This document shows, piece after piece, positions 9,552-53,100 of a stretch of DNA of 64,000 nucleotides. Both the position numbers and the translations under genes were made by a program. Under the pieces are notes generated by a model. That model had not been told where the DNA came from, ran no database searches, and saw only the letters and a list, made by a program, of their open reading frames with translations. Source of the stretch: Thermodesulfobacteriota bacterium (lineage in GTDB: Bacteria > Desulfobacterota > UBA8473); contig JBFLWQ010000005.1 of NCBI GenBank assembly GCA_040757775.1, forward strand, positions 8,295 to 72,294, written 5' to 3'. Positions within the stretch are counted from its first letter, which is position 1. Every line of letters starts with the position of its first letter.

Positions 9552-11615
9552 TTGGCAATACTAGTTCCGTTACAAAAGACAAGAAATATAGGGATTATGG
9601 CACATATAGACGCAGGTAAAACTACAACTACGGAAAGAATACTATATTATACGGGTGTTTCTTATAAGATGGGTGAAGTCAACGATGGATCAGCCATAAT
9701 GGACTGGATGGAGCAAGAACAAGAGAGAGGTATTACCATAACCTCTGCGGCTACAACTTGTTTCTGGAATAGTAATAGGATTAACATCATCGACACCCCT
9801 GGCCATGTTGATTTTACTATAGAGGTTGAAAGATCTTTGCGTATTTTAGATGGAGCTGTGGTTATATTTTGCTCGGTAGGAGGTGTTGAACCCCAATCAG
9901 AGACTGTTTGGAGGCAAGCGGATAAGTATCATATTCCAAGGATTGCCTTTATCAATAAGATGGATAGAGTAGGAGCTGATTTTTCCCATGTGATCGATAT
10001 GATGAAAAACAAACTGCAGGCTAATCCCATAGTTCTGCAGTTGCCTGTTGGCAAGGAGGAAAACTTCAGGGGTGTTATTGATCTGATTAAAATGAAGGCT
10101 ATGGTTTATGATGAGAGCACTCTAGGGGCAAAATTTAAAGAAGAGGGTATCCCCCCAGATTTAACTGATTTAGCTTTGGAATATCGAGATAAGCTTATTG
10201 AGTCTGTGGCTGAGCAAGATGAGATATTAATGGGTAGATACCTGGAGGGAAAAACTATCACCAATGAAGAACTTAAACAAGTAATTAGAAGTGAGACTAT
10301 AGCTAACAGGCTTATTCCCGTGTTCTGCGGTGCAGCATTTAAGAACAAAGGAATTCAACCTTTATTAGATGGTATTGTTGACTATCTTCCTTCTCCTAAA
10401 GATGTTCCGTCAGTTAAAGGAGTTAACCCTGATGGTGAAGAAGTGACAAGAGAGGCAGACTATGATGCCCCTTTTTCAGCTTTGGTCTTTAAAATTATGA
10501 ATGATCCATTTGTAGGCCAGCAGTACTTCCTTAGAGTTTATTCTGGGTTTCTTGAGAAGGGTTTGTATGTATACAATTCTACTAAGGATAAGAAGGAGAG
10601 AATTGGTAGGCTTTTAAAGGTGCATTCGAACAAAAGGGAGGAAGTTAGAGAGGTCTATGCAGGTGATATTGCCGTTGCCGTTGGTTTAAAAAATACTATT
10701 ACAGGTGATACCCTTTGTGATAAAAGCCATCCAGTAATTTTAGAATCCATGGAGTTTCCTGATCCGGTTATCTCTGTTGCAATTGAGCCTAAGACGCGCG
10801 CTGATCAAGAAAAACTGGCAGAGTCACTTAACAGATTGACTATAGAGGATCCGTCTTTCAATGTCCGTATAGATGAAGAGACAAATCAGACTATTATTTC
10901 TGGGATGGGGGAGTTGCACTTAGAGATAATTGTGGACAGGTTACTTAGGGAATTTAAGGTGGCTGCTAATGTTGGCAAACCACAGGTGGCTTTTAAAGAA
11001 ACTATTACTAAATCGGTTAAATCAGAGGGTAGATTTGTTCGTCAGTCAGGAGGGCGTGGTCAATACGGAGATGTATGGCTTGAATTAGAACCTCAAGAAC
11101 GGGGGGCAGGTTTCGAATTTGTTAATAGAATTATAGGGGGGAGTATCCCTAAAGAATATATTCCCGCGATAGAAAAAGGTGTGATGGAAGCTATGGGGAG
11201 GGGGGTTTTAGCTGGATATCCTGTAGTAGATGTGAGGGTTACGCTATACGATGGTTCTTACCATGAGGTTGATTCATCAGAATTGGCATTTAAGATTGCC
11301 GGCTCTATAGGTTTTAGAGAAGGGGCAAAGAAAGCCCAGCCGATTTTATTGGAACCTATTATGGCCGTTCAAGTGATGGTTCCAGAGGAATTTATTGGTG
11401 AGGTAGTCAGCAATCTTATTTCTAGAAGAGGGAAAGTTTTAGATATGAATGTTAGGACAAGCTGGAAGATTATAGAAAGTAGGGTACCACTGGCTAATAT
11501 GTTTGGTTATTCAACCGACTTGCGATCGGCTACACAGGGTAGAGCTACTTATACTATGCAGTTTTCCCATTATGAACCGGTTCCAGCTTCCATTGCTGAG
11601 AATATCTTGGGATAG
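9552..11615 (+). CDS. fusA: elongation factor G
   Basis: 687 aa with GTPase motifs [17 protein letters not shown] and NKMDR. TTG start with GAGG about 12 nt upstream; the exact start is uncertain. Confidence 0.95.
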
Positions 11616-11655
11616 GTATGATAGGGAAAAATTCCTGGGAAGGGGGGATACAGGC

Positions 11656-12855
11656 ATGTCAAAGAAGAGGTTTGAGAGGACTAAGCCGCATGTTAACATA
11701 GGTACGATAGGTCATGTTGATCATGGTAAGACGACATTGACTTCAGCGATAACCAGGGTATTGAGTAATCAGGGTTTTGCGGAGTTTAGGTCTTATGATA
11801 GTATAGACAATGCGCCGGAGGAGAAGGAGCGTGGGTTAACGATAGCGATAGCGCATGTGGAGTATGAGACGGGGAAGAGGCATTATGCGCATATAGATTG
11901 TCCTGGGCATGCGGATTACATAAAGAACATGATTACAGGTGCGGCGCAGATGGATGGTACGGTTTTAGTGGTTAGTGCTGCGGATGGTCCGATGCCTCAG
12001 ACGAGAGAGCACATATTATTAGCCAGGCAGGTTAGAGTGCCTTACATAGTTGTATATTTGAACAAGGCGGACATGGTAGATGATCAGGAGTTAATGGAGT
12101 TAGTGGAGTTAGAGGTTAGAGAGCTTTTGACTGATTATGATTTTCCTGGGGATGAGATACCTGTTATATCTGGGTCAGCGCTTAAGGCGTTGGAGTGTGG
12201 TTGTGGCAAGAGAGAGTGTAATAATTGTAGGAGTATATTGGAGTTAATGGATGCGGTAGATGCGTATATTCCTGAGCCTGTTCGGGACATAGACAAGCCG
12301 TTTTTATTACCTGTGGAGGATGTTTTCAGCATATCTGGCAGGGGTACAGTAGTGACAGGCAGGGCTGAGCGTGGGGTAATCAAGGTAGGGGATGAGGTTG
12401 AGATAGTGGGGATAAGGCCGACATTGAAGACAGTATGTACAGGGGTTGAGATGTTCAGGAAGATATTGGATCAGGGTCAGGCTGGGGACAACATAGGGGT
12501 ATTACTTCGGGGGACGAAGCGGGACGAGGTAGAGCGTGGGCAGGTTGTATCGAAGCCTGGCAGTATAACTCCACACAAGAGGTTTAAGGCGGAGGTTTAC
12601 ATATTGGCGAAGGAGGAGGGGGGTAGGCACACTCCGTTTTTCAATGGTTATAGGCCGCAGTTTTATTTTAGGACTACAGATGTTACTGGGGTAGTGGCGT
12701 TACCGGAGGGGGTAGAGATGGTAATGCCTGGAGACAATGTATCGTTGAGTGTAGATTTGGTAACTCCGATAGCGATGGAGAAGGAGTTGAGGTTTGCTAT
12801 TCGTGAAGGTGGTAGAACTGTAGGCGCTGGTGTGATAAGTGATATTATTGAATAA
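11656..12855 (+). CDS. tuf: elongation factor Tu
   Basis: [18 protein letters not shown] and NKAD motifs. The ORF-track start at 11503 is a spurious 5' extension overlapping fusA. ATG 11656 ([17 protein letters not shown]) follows GGAAGGGGGGA. Confidence 0.96.
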
Positions 12856-12898
12856 AATAAAACAATTAATATGTAGGAAAGAGATGGGGTTTTAAGCA

Positions 12899-13213
12899 AT
12901 GAATGAACAAAGTAAAAAGATAAGAATTCGTTTAAAGGCCTACGATTACAGACTTTTAGATCAGTCTGCCGAAGAGATCGTTGAGACTGCTAAAAGGACT
13001 GGGGCAAAGGTTGCTGGACCTATACCTCTTCCTACAGTGATTAATAAGTATTGTGTTTTACGTTCCCCTCATGTTGACAAGAAATCCAGGGAACAATTTG
13101 AAATAAGAACCCATAAGAGACTTTTAGATATAATGGAGTCAACTCAGCAGACAATTGATGCCCTTATGAAGTTAGACCTCTCAGCAGGGGTTGATGTAGA
13201 AATTAAACTGTAG
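12899..13213 (+). CDS. rpsJ: 30S ribosomal protein S10
   Basis: 104 aa, [17 protein letters not shown]... First gene of the S10 operon order. Confidence 0.96.
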
Positions 13214-32466: not shown

Positions 32467-34125
32467 ATGTTTAAAAAAATTTTTATTATATTAGTTATTC
32501 TGTTTGTTGCTGCATTTCTGACCCATCCTTTTCTGGTTCAAAAATCAGAAGCTGCAATAGAAAAGATAGCCGAGGTTTCGAAATATACAGGAGAAGTTAT
32601 GGTACGAACCGGAATGGAATGGAATACCCTCAAAAAAGTTCCATACCCTTTGTTTCCGGGAGATAAAGTAGTCACAAAACAGGGTAGAGCCGAGATTAAA
32701 TTTCTTGACGGAAGCCTCTTAAGGTTGGATCTGGACTCTAATATAAGGATATCTGAAAAAAAAGAAAAGAGGGGGCTCATCTTTAAGAAGCTTGTCTTTG
32801 TTCGAAATATAAAGATTGTCCTTGGCAAGGTGTGGTTCGATGTTAGACCAGCCAAGGATTCTGAGACCACATTTATTGCGCCTACTATGACTGCTGCCAT
32901 AAGGGGAACCAGGGGAGTAAACGAGGTAGCACCAGACGGCAGGGCTGCATGGGGGTTGACGGAGGGGTCTGCTGAAACCAGGGGAAGTTTTTCAAGACCC
33001 AGTACCTTTGTGCCCCCCAACGTTGCTGTTCCAGCAAGGCAGCTGCCACCCAGAAATCCTGTTGCAGCCAACTCACTGCCCCAAAAAGCTGTTGCTGAAT
33101 CTATTGTGAAGCAGGTTGCTGCCAGGGCTGCTGCGGAGAAAGCTGATGCTGCCATGGCTGTTGCGGCTAAGATTGTTGACAAGAAAGCCGCTGCTATAGC
33201 AGAGGCTCAGGCTTCGGCTGCTAAGGCAGAGGCCGCCAGATTTGAAGCTGAGGCCCGGGTAGTATCAGCCTCAGAGACTGTCGTGGAAGCGAGAACTCTC
33301 AGAGATACAGCTGCTGCTAATGCGGCACAGGAAGCCGTAAATAAGGCTGTTGCTGCCGTAAAAACTGTAGCTGAATTAGCCAATAATGCCAGAAAGGCTG
33401 CAGACCAGGCAAGAGCTGCTGCAGATGTTAATTCTGCTGTAGTTGCTGCTACTGTTGCTAAGAGCGCTGCTACTGCGAGTGATTCTGCCGGGGCAGTTGT
33501 TGCTACGAATGCATTTGTGGCTGCTGCCCAGTCTGCAGGGGAAAAGGATGAAGCTGTCAGGGCAATAAAGGCAGTTGCTTCAGCCGAGGATGCAGCAAAG
33601 AAGGCACAAGAAGCAGCCGTTAGTATTGCTGTTATAGCTGAAAAGGCTGTTAAGGAAAAGGCCGCTAATATGGTTAATGCCGCTTTAGAACTTGGCAAGG
33701 CTGCTGCTGAAGTTTTAAAGGCTACTACGGAGTTAGCCCTGTCTGTTAAAGACATGGCAAGAGTGGCTGCTCTCGGTGATGTTGAAGGGTCAGATAAAGC
33801 TGCTGAGGCTATAGTTAAAGCAGAGGCAAGTACAGCGTCTTCTTTTGAAGCCTTAAAAGAGGGAACAAATGCATTGGAAAAAGGGGACGTGAAGGGACTG
33901 CAGCAAGCGGTCATCACCGTAAACAAAACAGCTAAAGAAACAAGTAATATAATGACCGAAGCAGCAACACGGACCAGAGGGGCACTGGCTGTAGTAGAGA
34001 AAATTGTGACCCAGGAAACGGCTCCAATGCCATATATTCCTCCTCCTACGCCACCGGTTGCTCCAGAAGAGTATGTTCCGCCGCCACCACCACCGGAAGA
34101 AGAGGTGGCTAGCCCCGCAACTTAG
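32467..34125 (+). CDS. FecR-domain protein with long Ala-rich helical region and polyproline C-terminus
   Basis: 552 aa. It has an N-terminal TM/signal segment (IFIILVILFVAAFL) and a FecR-like beta domain (GEVMVRTG...LFPGDKVVTKQGRAEIKFLDGSLLRLDLDSNIRI). About 300 aa of A/K/E/V-rich low complexity follows, and the protein ends PPPTPPVAPEEYVPPPPPPEEE. Confidence 0.8.
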   Translation: MFKKIFIILVILFVAAFLTHPFLVQKSEAAIEKIAEVSKYTGEVMVRTGMEWNTLKKVPYPLFPGDKVVTKQGRAEIKFLDGSLLRLDLDSNIRISEKKEKRGLIFKKLVFVRNIKIVLGKVWFDVRPAKDSETTFIAPTMTAAIRGTRGVNEVAPDGRAAWGLTEGSAETRGSFSRPSTFVPPNVAVPARQLPPRNPVAANSLPQKAVAESIVKQVAARAAAEKADAAMAVAAKIVDKKAAAIAEAQASAAKAEAARFEAEARVVSASETVVEARTLRDTAAANAAQEAVNKAVAAVKTVAELANNARKAADQARAAADVNSAVVAATVAKSAATASDSAGAVVATNAFVAAAQSAGEKDEAVRAIKAVASAEDAAKKAQEAAVSIAVIAEKAVKEKAANMVNAALELGKAAAEVLKATTELALSVKDMARVAALGDVEGSDKAAEAIVKAEASTASSFEALKEGTNALEKGDVKGLQQAVITVNKTAKETSNIMTEAATRTRGALAVVEKIVTQETAPMPYIPPPTPPVAPEEYVPPPPPPEEEVASPAT

Positions 34126-50904: not shown

Positions 50905-51092
50905 TAGTAGGGCAAGTCACATGCGCACAGGCGGTTTGAATTATGCACAGTAGCTTACCTTCTGAGAAATGGAGGCATGGCGGTGGTTGACAACATGGAC
51001 TTGTCAGGAGGGGCATTTGAGGAATTGTTGCTGCAAGCTGGATTAAACGGTTATGCATACGGAGATTTAACCGGGAGAAGGATGAATATGCC

Positions 51093-52124
51093 ATGAAAGC
51101 TCTCATAACAGGTGGAGCCGGGTTTATCGGATGCAATTTGACTGACCGGTTGTTCACCCAGAAACAGTCGGTTACCATCTTTGACAATCTCTCACGCCCG
51201 GGCACACCACAGAATATAGCCTGGCTACGTGAACGCCATCCAAACCAAGTACATCTGATCGAGGGAGACGTTCGGGACGTCCAGTTGGTTGCTCGTGCAT
51301 GTCAGGGAGTAGACATTATCTATCACCTGGCGGCTCAGACTGCTGTGACAACATCCGTCAAGGATCCGAGGACCGACTTTGAGATCAATGCCCTTGGAAC
51401 TCTGAACGTCCTTGAAGCTGCACGAACTTGTGGTTCAAATCCAATCGTTATCTTTGCTTCTACAAACAAGGTGTACGGCCAACTGGAAAATATAACAACT
51501 GAGAAGCAAGCAACACGCTACGTTTACAAGGATAGACTCTACGGCGTAGATGAGACGCAAATGCTCGATTTTCATTCACCTTACGGGTGCTCCAAAGGAG
51601 CAGCAGACCAATACGTTCGCGATTATGCGCGCATCTATGGATTGCGCACGGTTGTTTTCCGCCAATCTTGCATCTACGGTCCTAGGCAGTTTGGTATAGA
51701 GGACCAGGGTTGGGTGGCATGGTTTATTATTTCTTCTGTGTTGGGTAATCGGATTACAATCTACGGCGACGGCAGGCAGGTGCGAGATTTACTACATATC
51801 AACGACTTGCTTGATGCCTTTGAAGTAGCTAGAGCCAAGATTGAGATATCAGCGGGTCAGGTGTATAACATTGGCGGGGGTTATGACAATTCCTTGTCCA
51901 TTTGGCTGGAGTTTGGCCCACTTCTCGAAGAACTTCTGGGACAAACCATTGAGATTTACTACGCGGATTGGCGACTAGGTGATCAGCGGGTTTATATTAG
52001 CAACTGTCAAAAGGCAATCAACGACCTTAGATGGCAACCGCGCATTGGTATACGAGAAGGCATCAAGGATCTGATAGCCTGGGTCAAGTGTAATCGTTCG
52101 CTCTTTGAGGAGGTATTTTGCTGA
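51093..52124 (+). CDS. NAD-dependent sugar epimerase (CDP-paratose 2-epimerase-like SDR)
   Basis: 343 aa, MKALITGGAGFIGCNL, SPYGCSKGAADQY (YxxxK), SCIYGPRQFGIEDQGWVAWF. Noticeably higher GC than its neighbours. Confidence 0.75.
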   Translation: MKALITGGAGFIGCNLTDRLFTQKQSVTIFDNLSRPGTPQNIAWLRERHPNQVHLIEGDVRDVQLVARACQGVDIIYHLAAQTAVTTSVKDPRTDFEINALGTLNVLEAARTCGSNPIVIFASTNKVYGQLENITTEKQATRYVYKDRLYGVDETQMLDFHSPYGCSKGAADQYVRDYARIYGLRTVVFRQSCIYGPRQFGIEDQGWVAWFIISSVLGNRITIYGDGRQVRDLLHINDLLDAFEVARAKIEISAGQVYNIGGGYDNSLSIWLEFGPLLEELLGQTIEIYYADWRLGDQRVYISNCQKAINDLRWQPRIGIREGIKDLIAWVKCNRSLFEEVFC

Positions 52125-52999
52125 TGGGCTATGTTGATAATATCACCGCAACAGTTTGTACACTAAACGAGGAGGATAACATTGCCGAATGTTTAGAGAC
52201 CATAGCTCGCAATAACCCGCGTGAGATTATCGTGGTTGATGGGGGATCGGAAGATGCAACGGTACATGTTGCTAAGCGCTTTACTGACAAAGTCTATGTC
52301 GTGGGGCGCAAGGGATTGGCTTTTCAACGCCAGTATGCGGTTGATCATGCCACTGGCAAGTATGTAGGAATTTTTGACTCAGATCACCGACTATCAGAAG
52401 GTTGCCTTGAGAAATTGGCAGAAGAACTTGAAGCCAACGGATATGACGGCATCGAAGCCCAAGTTCTCAGTGTGCAGAACACGAACTATTGGGATTGGGC
52501 GATGGACCAAAACGTTAAGCTGACTCACAATATCCCCGGTCCGCGGATCATGATCGGCACTCCTTGCCTATATTGTACGGAAGTACTGCGGAAGGTACGC
52601 TTTGATCCGTTCTTTACAGCAGCAAGTGATGACACTGATCTCTGCTATCGCCTAGTGAAAGCCGGTTACAAACTTGGAGTAGGAACTCCCATAGTCTATC
52701 ACAAGCATCGCAGTTCGTTCAGCCAGTTCATTCGAAAGTGGCAATGGTATGGGAAGGGTGATGCTCAGTTCTTCTGGAAACACTCCGAGAGGCGATGGAG
52801 CATCTTCAGCCATCCTATTCGCAACTATGTCATTGGTCGTAGCATAAAGAGTTTGAAAGCAGGGAAACCACAGCTTGTCCTTTTCTTCGTCATCTGTGGT
52901 CTCAGTCGGCACTATGGCTTCTGGAGGCAGTTTCTCTCGATGCTTGTTAGTAGAGTGACTACCGGGGAGGTCGAAGATCGAAGCATATACAAGACCTAA
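52118..52999 (+). CDS. family 2 glycosyltransferase with C-terminal membrane-associated region
   Basis: 293 aa, ATVCTLNEEDNIAECL...IIVVDGGSEDAT...FDSDH. 7-nt overlap with the epimerase gene. Confidence 0.75.
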   Translation: MLMGYVDNITATVCTLNEEDNIAECLETIARNNPREIIVVDGGSEDATVHVAKRFTDKVYVVGRKGLAFQRQYAVDHATGKYVGIFDSDHRLSEGCLEKLAEELEANGYDGIEAQVLSVQNTNYWDWAMDQNVKLTHNIPGPRIMIGTPCLYCTEVLRKVRFDPFFTAASDDTDLCYRLVKAGYKLGVGTPIVYHKHRSSFSQFIRKWQWYGKGDAQFFWKHSERRWSIFSHPIRNYVIGRSIKSLKAGKPQLVLFFVICGLSRHYGFWRQFLSMLVSRVTTGEVEDRSIYKT

Positions 53000-53100
53000 C
53001 TGGACTTTTGCAAAAGGGCTACCCTATAATACGATTGAGCGGAAAAAGTCTATGGACGTTGAAGCCTTGAGCAGCACAAACTGCCTGCTAACCGGAGACT

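Follow-up and report, generated by a model that had tools for sequence, protein, structure and literature searches.

A private, G-rich codon set in the twin tuf genes of a Thermodesulfobacteriota bacterium, its fading over the last 19 codons, and a possible origin in gene conversion between the copies

The window, by which we mean the whole stretch of 64,000 nucleotides that was analysed, carries the rplKAJL-rpoBC, str, S10, and spc operons. The gene at issue is the str-operon copy of tuf, which lies between fusA and rpsJ and was assigned by its translation, by tblastn, and from the list of open reading frames (ORFs). Its codon usage, which we call the dialect, divides it into a body and a tail, and the features needed for what follows are these:

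Positions 9552 to 11615, forward strand: fusA (EF-G), in the same operon on the 5' side of tuf, without the dialect (third-position G 0.23, third-position C 0.11); start codon as predicted.
Positions 11639 to 12860, forward strand: a perfect repeat of 1222 bp, which takes in tuf, the 17-nt leader that holds its ribosome-binding site, and 5 nt beyond the stop codon (ungapped comparison and self-megablast).
Positions 11656 to 12855, forward strand: tuf (EF-Tu, 399 amino acids plus stop).
Positions 11656 to 12795, forward strand: the dialect body of tuf, codons 1 to 380, with a third-position GC skew of +0.71.
Positions 12796 to 12852, forward strand: the tuf tail, codons 381 to 399, in the local codon style, with a third-position GC skew of 0.0; it holds both GAA codons of the gene.
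Positions 12899 to 13213, forward strand: rpsJ, which begins 44 nt past the tuf stop and is without the dialect (ORF list and codon counts).

The encoded protein is a normal 399-residue EF-Tu. Its domain-1 loop holds a four-cysteine motif (C-G-C-G-K-x-x-C-x-x-C, residues 181–191, positions 12196–12228) which resembles a small zinc-knuckle-type insert; the corresponding loop of E. coli EF-Tu is without it, and at least four cysteines are found at this place in 43 of the 86 sequences surveyed from the phylum. The four operons named above carry known leader RNAs in model bacteria; despite their presence, no Rfam family reached its gathering score in the window (1–64000). Local peaks of GC content with low GC skew lie at 33001–34000 (0.50) and 51001–53000 (0.48), against about 0.40.

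The codons of tuf are strikingly one-sided. Lysine is encoded by 20 AAG and no AAA, glutamate by 32 GAG and 2 GAA, and glutamine by 9 CAG and no CAA, so that in the body all 61 Lys/Glu/Gln codons end in G and none in A, with the dialect at full strength already at codon 2. GCG accounts for 19 of 25 alanine codons (GCA for none), ATA for 23 of 29 isoleucine codons, and AGG for 16 of 28 arginine codons. A preliminary description of this DNA had counted these codons by hand, and our counts reproduced every figure. It had also held that the neighbouring genes behave differently, which 13 of them (rpoC, rpsL, rpsG, fusA, rpsJ, rplC, and others), when pooled, bear out: they mix AAA and AAG (192 and 154) as well as GAA and GAG (174 and 115), and use GCG for only 20 of 237 alanines and ATA for 110 of 323 isoleucines. 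At third positions, tuf has 0.41 G and 0.07 C, where the neighbours have 0.16–0.27 and 0.08–0.15. The GC content of tuf is 0.47 against 0.40, but the pattern is not simply one of high GC, as was likewise noticed at the outset, since two-fold pyrimidine codons still favour T (GAT 19 to GAC 7, and, with the T-ending codon first, CAT 7 to 3, TAT 8 to 3, and TTT 10 to 3).

We scored 2480 crude ORFs of the 3.1-Mb assembly by their log-likelihood per codon under tuf versus genome codon usage. The assembly has two tuf copies, and these scored +0.30 and +0.39, while the next-best ORF scored −0.14 and the genome mean was −0.51 (SD 0.10); tuf thus lies about 9 SDs above the mean and the runner-up 3.6. 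Among the same ORFs, the G fraction of Lys/Glu/Gln codons was 0.93–0.97 in the tuf copies compared with a genome 99th percentile of 0.70, and the GCG share of alanine was 0.76 compared with a 99th percentile of 0.36. No other ORF among the 2480 shared the dialect with the tuf pair, including the co-operonic fusA, rpsL, and rpsG and the genes of the S10 operon, and the Lys/Glu/Gln G fraction of ribosomal-protein genes, fusA, and rpoC was 0.43, next to a genome value of 0.46. The suggestion that this is not the ordinary translational selection common to other highly expressed genes therefore held up. Some genes that are likely to be highly expressed do lean mildly toward the dialect, for example a GroEL-like ORF, identified by eye, with a Lys/Glu/Gln G fraction of 0.67, and principal component 2 of the genome, a keto-versus-amino axis at third positions, has the dialect of tuf at its far end (z = 3–4).

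The dialect stops before the gene does. Among codons for six diagnostic amino acids, 118 in the body follow the dialect and 17 do not, whereas in the tail 1 does and 9 do not (Fisher P = 4.6e-7), and the tail scores lowest of 380 sliding windows of 19 codons along tuf. In synonymous-shuffle permutations, a tail this low had P < 2e-4 and a window this low anywhere in the gene had P = 0.002. The reversion that the preliminary description had placed at codon 381 is thus real. A consensus scan of the tail found no embedded promoter or terminator, and tails vary between lineages with local GC; the lack of any Rfam match in the window also sets aside a known RNA element as the cause of the tail.

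The second tuf copy, found by tblastn, lies outside the window on the same contig, 16.5 kb upstream (G000:C5:3413-4634, where G000 is the source genome). It follows tRNA genes for Thr, Tyr, Gly, and Thr and is itself followed by rpmG, tRNA-Trp, secE, and nusG, which is the classical tufB context; the copy in the window is the str-operon copy, and both genes are native and occupy the classical tufA and tufB positions. The two copies match at 100% of bases, tail included, over a block that begins 17 nt before the start codon and ends 5 nt past the stop; their flanks are unrelated. By self-megablast this block is the only long perfect repeat of the assembly. The paralogues are 100% identical over 1222 bp whereas the same-genus orthologue is 93.1% identical at the nucleotide level, and on these comparisons the pair appears to be kept identical by gene conversion. 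Since identity runs through the tail, the tail is part of the homogenised block, and the proposal of a recombination junction at position 12796, with tuf from a different source on either side, fails. The related proposal of gene conversion from a divergent second copy survives in part: a second copy exists and conversion is central to our reading, but that copy is identical over 1222 bp and not divergent. Only one other repeat in the source genome deserves mention, a direct one of 779 bp and 97% identity (G000:C2:77695-78473 and 80914-81692) that holds two copies of a gene of about 187 codons in an apparent defence or mobile region and looks like a recent duplication. Taken as a second test case within this genome, this repeat on contig C2 showed no nucleotide skew.

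We compared tuf of the source genome with that of its relatives. EF-Tu identity falls with taxonomic rank, from 95–96% within the genus to 90–92% within the family and at most 84% in the rest of the phylum, and in an EF-Tu tree the source genome groups with its family mate. The dialect is present in tuf of two genus mates (L002 and L003), three family mates (L004–L006), and a member of another family (L009), where Lys/Glu/Gln codons end in G or A in ratios of 57/7 to 68/3 and ATA makes up 21–30 of about 30 isoleucine codons. The fusA, rpsJ, and rplC genes of these relatives are without it (fusA Lys/Glu/Gln G/A, for example, 43/52, 46/52, and 38/47). The EF-Tu phylogeny, which had been named as a place where transfer should show, is free of conflict with taxonomy, and the idea that tuf had been replaced by a xenologous gene fails on these identities, on the tree, and on the dialect and flank contrast kept across genus, family, and a further family. 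In a comparison of L001 with L009, the two tuf genes use the same codon at 0.62 of conserved residues, where shared preferences alone would give 0.56. Silent sites are therefore near saturation, and as the dialect persists all the same, it is actively maintained and not the relic of a transfer. Taken with the survey below, these data identify the dialect as an ancient trait, still actively maintained, of those lineages of the phylum that have two tuf copies.

We surveyed 86 tuf loci with their flanks from the phylum. Copy number was classed by full-length matches, by C-terminal fragments where contigs end, and by the surroundings on the contig, and a tuf gene was scored as having the dialect when its third-position (G−C)/(G+C) exceeded that of flanking ORFs by more than 0.3. 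Of the 63 two-copy genomes, which span 38 families, 34 genomes in 20 families carried the G-rich, C-poor dialect; none of the 18 genomes confidently classed as single-copy, from 14 families, did so (P = 3e-4 in a Fisher test at the family level). When phylogeny was controlled for, 5 independent contrasts between single and twin lineages were available, of which about 2.4 went the predicted way, 0 the opposite way, and the rest showed no difference, which is not significant. Six genomes at first looked like single-copy genomes with the dialect; we checked these by the position of nusG, together with G228, which lay just below the cut-off (+0.25) and showed the tail drop. Five of the 7 could be resolved, and in each of them a contig ends 390–880 nt upstream of nusG, at the site expected for a tufB-type copy, so these five apparent singles are hidden twins. 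Truly single-copy tuf genes, in the complete genomes G373 and G088 and in G014, are without the dialect. Metagenome-assembled genomes (MAGs) built from short reads break at the tuf repeat (for example G139:C11, G345:C28, G228:C26, G080:C12, and G290:C285), and at such a break one copy may appear internal and “single” while the other is lost.

Two copies, and even identical ones, are not enough. At least 10 families have near-identical twins (0–2 mismatches) without the dialect, which means that conversion is not sufficient for it. Distance and orientation of the copies were considered as a determinant and discarded, as the dialect can be present or absent both when the copies form a close direct pair and when they are distant or inverted. 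Loss of mismatch repair was likewise discarded: the source genome has MutS1 and MutL and is without NucS and Vsr, MutS1, found in 72 of the 75 genomes surveyed, does not separate dialect from nondialect lineages, and the only two twin lineages without MutS1 (G153 and G111; n = 2) lack the dialect.

The tail recurs wherever the dialect does. In all 20 dialect families the boundary falls at codons 381–386. It therefore belongs to the process as a lasting feature and does not record a single breakpoint event; this recurrence, with the identity of both copies through the tail, speaks against reading position 12796 as a recombination junction. When one genome from each of the 20 families was pooled in bins of 19 codons, A-ending codons made up 55% of Lys/Glu/Gln in the last 19 codons versus 0–16% in the other bins, and third-position C was 0.38 in the tail versus 0.07–0.24 elsewhere. 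Codon by codon, G dominates up to 379, usage is mixed over 381–389, and the local preference holds from about 390. There is no dip at the 5' end of dialect genes, which are at full strength from codon 2. Scored against their own flanks, dialect lineages have a tail z of −3.7 and a head z of about 0, whereas single-copy lineages with a strong classical bias toward C-ending codons have a tail z of +0.4 and a head z of −1.3, the latter being a 5' dip; these opposite profiles indicate two qualitatively different kinds of tuf bias in the phylum. Tails vary from lineage to lineage and follow the style of their own genome, which looks like the absence of a force and not like a conserved 3' element.

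Differences between twins cluster in the same place. In pairs with at most 10 differing bases, 12 of 36 differences fall within the last 57 nt (4.8% of the gene; P = 6e-8) and 2 within the first 15 nt, which marks the 3' edge as the least homogenised part of the gene. Weaker constraint there could account for part of the excess, but it is seen in weak-bias lineages too and is therefore not merely relaxed codon selection. In Salmonella, tuf conversion has been measured at 2e-5 per generation at nt 1126 of 1185 versus 2e-3 at nt 679 in mutS strains, and at 2e-8 versus 1e-5 at the same two sites in the wild type (PMC5485169). Together with the twin differences, these rates indicate that the dialect fades just where conversion fades. 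A published symmetric model of conversion predicts a drop at the 5' end as well, and none is seen in dialect tuf.

In aggregate over dialect tuf genes, two-fold purine-ending codons are 93–99% G, and in four-fold boxes G stands at 0.64 versus 0.31 in the flanks and C at 0.07 versus 0.30. Two-fold pyrimidine codons are nearly unchanged (C/(C+T) 0.40 versus 0.46 in the flanks), ATA rises to 48% from 20%, and TTG to 52% from 14%. The private set thus consists of G where allowed, ATA for isoleucine, TTR for leucine, and scarce third-position C where G is possible, and G acts as a sink at silent sites. Plain GC-biased conversion is ruled out as the source because third-position C falls, and deamination of cytosine or adenine because C is lost at third positions while two-fold pyrimidine codons stay unchanged.

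On balance, we lean slightly toward the view that the dialect is mainly a strand-asymmetric, G-favouring by-product of conversion between the twin tuf genes. The strand asymmetry would arise as heteroduplex between the copies is formed and repaired: coding-strand G would be favoured, and silent sites would be driven to G; conversion tracts would seldom reach the 3' edge of homology, so that the last 19 or so codons would escape the drive and evolve as local genes do. We can only speculate on the basis of such an asymmetry: the heteroduplex may always be formed by one strand, and general mismatch repair, which may correct the invading coding strand, may have to compete with base-specific enzymes that take T out of G.T and A out of G.A mismatches. 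A repair scheme of this kind would favour coding-strand G over A and T and leave C/T neutral, and, speculative as it is, it would fit most of the bias but not ATA or GTA. A simple G drive does not account for the preferences for ATA, GTA, and TTA, and we know of no repair bias that gives G but not C on one strand.

The strongest alternative is natural selection specific to tuf, acting on its codons or its mRNA, with conversion merely spreading the favoured alleles; we consider this a real though distinctly less probable explanation. In its codon version, the bacterium is a slow grower with one gene per tRNA, in which only tuf, encoding the most abundant protein, would pass the threshold for codon selection, G-ending codons being readable by both C34 and U34 tRNAs and ATA having a dedicated tRNA. 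In its mRNA version, a C-poor message that is unstructured or resistant to Rho would be favoured. The source genome has 48 tRNA genes, including tRNA-Sec, with one gene per anticodon except for two tRNA-Glu(CUC) genes and with three CAU tRNAs, as would be expected of a slowly growing organism in which classical codon selection has little scope. Set against the preferred codons, this supply, taken as gene counts only, provides a C34 tRNA for every box, and with all C34 tRNAs present and tRNA-Glu(CUC) duplicated, G-ending codons could plausibly be selected. Selection would also account for the long maintenance of the dialect, its strength on tuf codons has been measured in Salmonella (0.2–4.2e-4 per codon; PMC4786093), and the dialect-free identical twins, by showing that conversion alone is not enough, call for a lineage-specific factor. 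The box specificity moreover looks tRNA-like, as Val and Leu TTR codons have not moved to G and two-fold pyrimidine codons do not follow the four-fold boxes (P = 0.011). Selection sits poorly, however, with the lack of any trace of the dialect in ribosomal-protein genes, fusA, and rpoC, with the missing 5' dip, which classically biased single-copy tuf genes of the same phylum do have, and with the abrupt loss over the last 19 codons, for which those classical genes have no counterpart. Nor is the dialect found in any confident single-copy lineage, where selection per copy should be at least equal, and the reversion of each tail to the local style of its genome in place of a conserved sequence argues against a 3' RNA element. 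The twin copies and their identity, the upkeep of the dialect across the lineage, its positional profile, and its co-occurrence with two copies are observed; the role of conversion bias, in preference to selection, as the force behind it, and the molecular basis of that bias, we infer.

A mutational asymmetry associated with the extreme transcription of tuf seems improbable. C-to-T and A-to-G changes on the exposed nontemplate strand, together with repair of the template strand that lowers G-to-A, would make the coding strand G-rich and C-poor, in keeping with the depletion of C, the move of leucine from CTN to TTR, and the place of the dialect at the extreme of the keto-versus-amino axis. Such an asymmetry should not spare the last 19 codons or the neighbours on the same transcript, though, and cytosine deamination should deplete C in two-fold pyrimidine codons, which are almost unchanged; it also leaves ATA unexplained, and single-copy lineages do not show the dialect. 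That a xenologous gene replaced tuf and left a recombination junction at codon 381, as the atypical composition of the gene and its sharp internal boundary might suggest, we regard as practically untenable, because EF-Tu identity and tree track taxonomy, the dialect and boundary are common to relatives and 20 families, both copies carry the tail, and silent sites are near saturation when lineages with a common dialect are compared. With foreign origin rejected, a conversion-linked, strand-asymmetric G drive on the twin tuf genes stands as the likeliest cause, a judgment in which our confidence is a little above even.

Read broadly, conversion between duplicate genes in many bacteria would have a strong, strand-specific transmission bias toward G that is able to recode nearly all silent sites of a maximally expressed, essential gene; we put this forward tentatively, with doubt slightly outweighing belief. 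The gene is routinely included in the “highly expressed” reference sets from which optimal codons, codon-adaptation indices, and growth-rate predictions are derived, and if the silent sites of two-copy tuf are set by a recombination-linked drive, such inferences would be biased in many uncultured groups. The tuf footprint, full from codon 2 and fading over codons 381–399, would then be a natural read-out of the conversion rate per site. For annotation, an atypical composition of tuf is not evidence of horizontal transfer, and because a tuf that is called “single-copy” in a short-read MAG often reflects an assembly break, the contig ends near nusG need to be checked.

The dialect is a variant of known phenomena; full-text searches brought up no account of a private tuf codon set or of a 3' boundary. 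Concerted evolution of tufA and tufB by RecA-dependent gene conversion is established in Salmonella and E. coli (Paulsson et al. 2017, PMC5485169), and its breadth has been surveyed (Lathe & Bork 2001; Wang & Chen 2018, PMC6053082). The pair described here resembles that system in having one copy in the str operon and one in a tRNA-tuf-rpmG-secE-nusG context, in having paralogues closer than orthologues, and in having identity confined to the coding region, and inefficient conversion near the 3' end of the gene is a feature of the known system. It differs in that those papers describe homogenisation only, with no private codon set, no skew of G over C, and no 3' boundary in codon usage.

Classical major-codon bias makes tuf the most codon-biased gene, with synonymous changes of measurable fitness cost (Brandis & Hughes 2016, PMC4786093), and tuf is the most biased gene here as well. 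Unlike the classical bias, the dialect is not found in ribosomal proteins or EF-G, is not weaker at the 5' end, and stops before the stop codon, while single-copy tuf genes of the same phylum behave in the classical way. GC-biased gene conversion, reportedly documented in bacteria by Lassalle and colleagues in 2015, is a nonadaptive, recombination-linked drive at silent sites that favours AT-to-GC changes. It is strand-symmetric and raises both G and C, whereas in tuf third-position G is high, third-position C is low, and ATA is enriched.

The closest comparison is with GRINS, which are converting repeats of >500 bp and >80% identity in functional genes, found across phyla and gene families, whose mechanism is unknown (PMC8256042). 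Their skews are intense, concentrated at third codon positions, and abruptly changing, and they are defined by GC and TA skew both above 0.15, which are usually correlated; they have been described in polyketide synthases and transposases, and tuf is absent from the main text of that paper (PMC8256042). The tuf repeat, with 1222 bp at 100% identity, is well within the limits of length and identity, and its mean absolute GC skew of 0.44 in 150-nt windows, compared with 0.26 in fusA, exceeds 0.15. Its mean absolute TA skew is only 0.08, however, with a GC–TA correlation of r = 0.04; both skews exceed the threshold in only 3 of the 86 surveyed tuf loci, and while GRINS are skewed either way, every surveyed dialect tuf is G-rich on the coding strand. 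If the conversion-linked G drive is correct, the “codon optimisation” of tuf, extreme in these lineages, would be nonadaptive and due to the same process as GRINS, and twin tuf would offer a simple and widespread system for studying the GRINS mechanism, with one essential gene, two copies, and an internal control of 19 codons. We conclude that the tuf pair is a GC-skew-only relative of GRINS and not a member.
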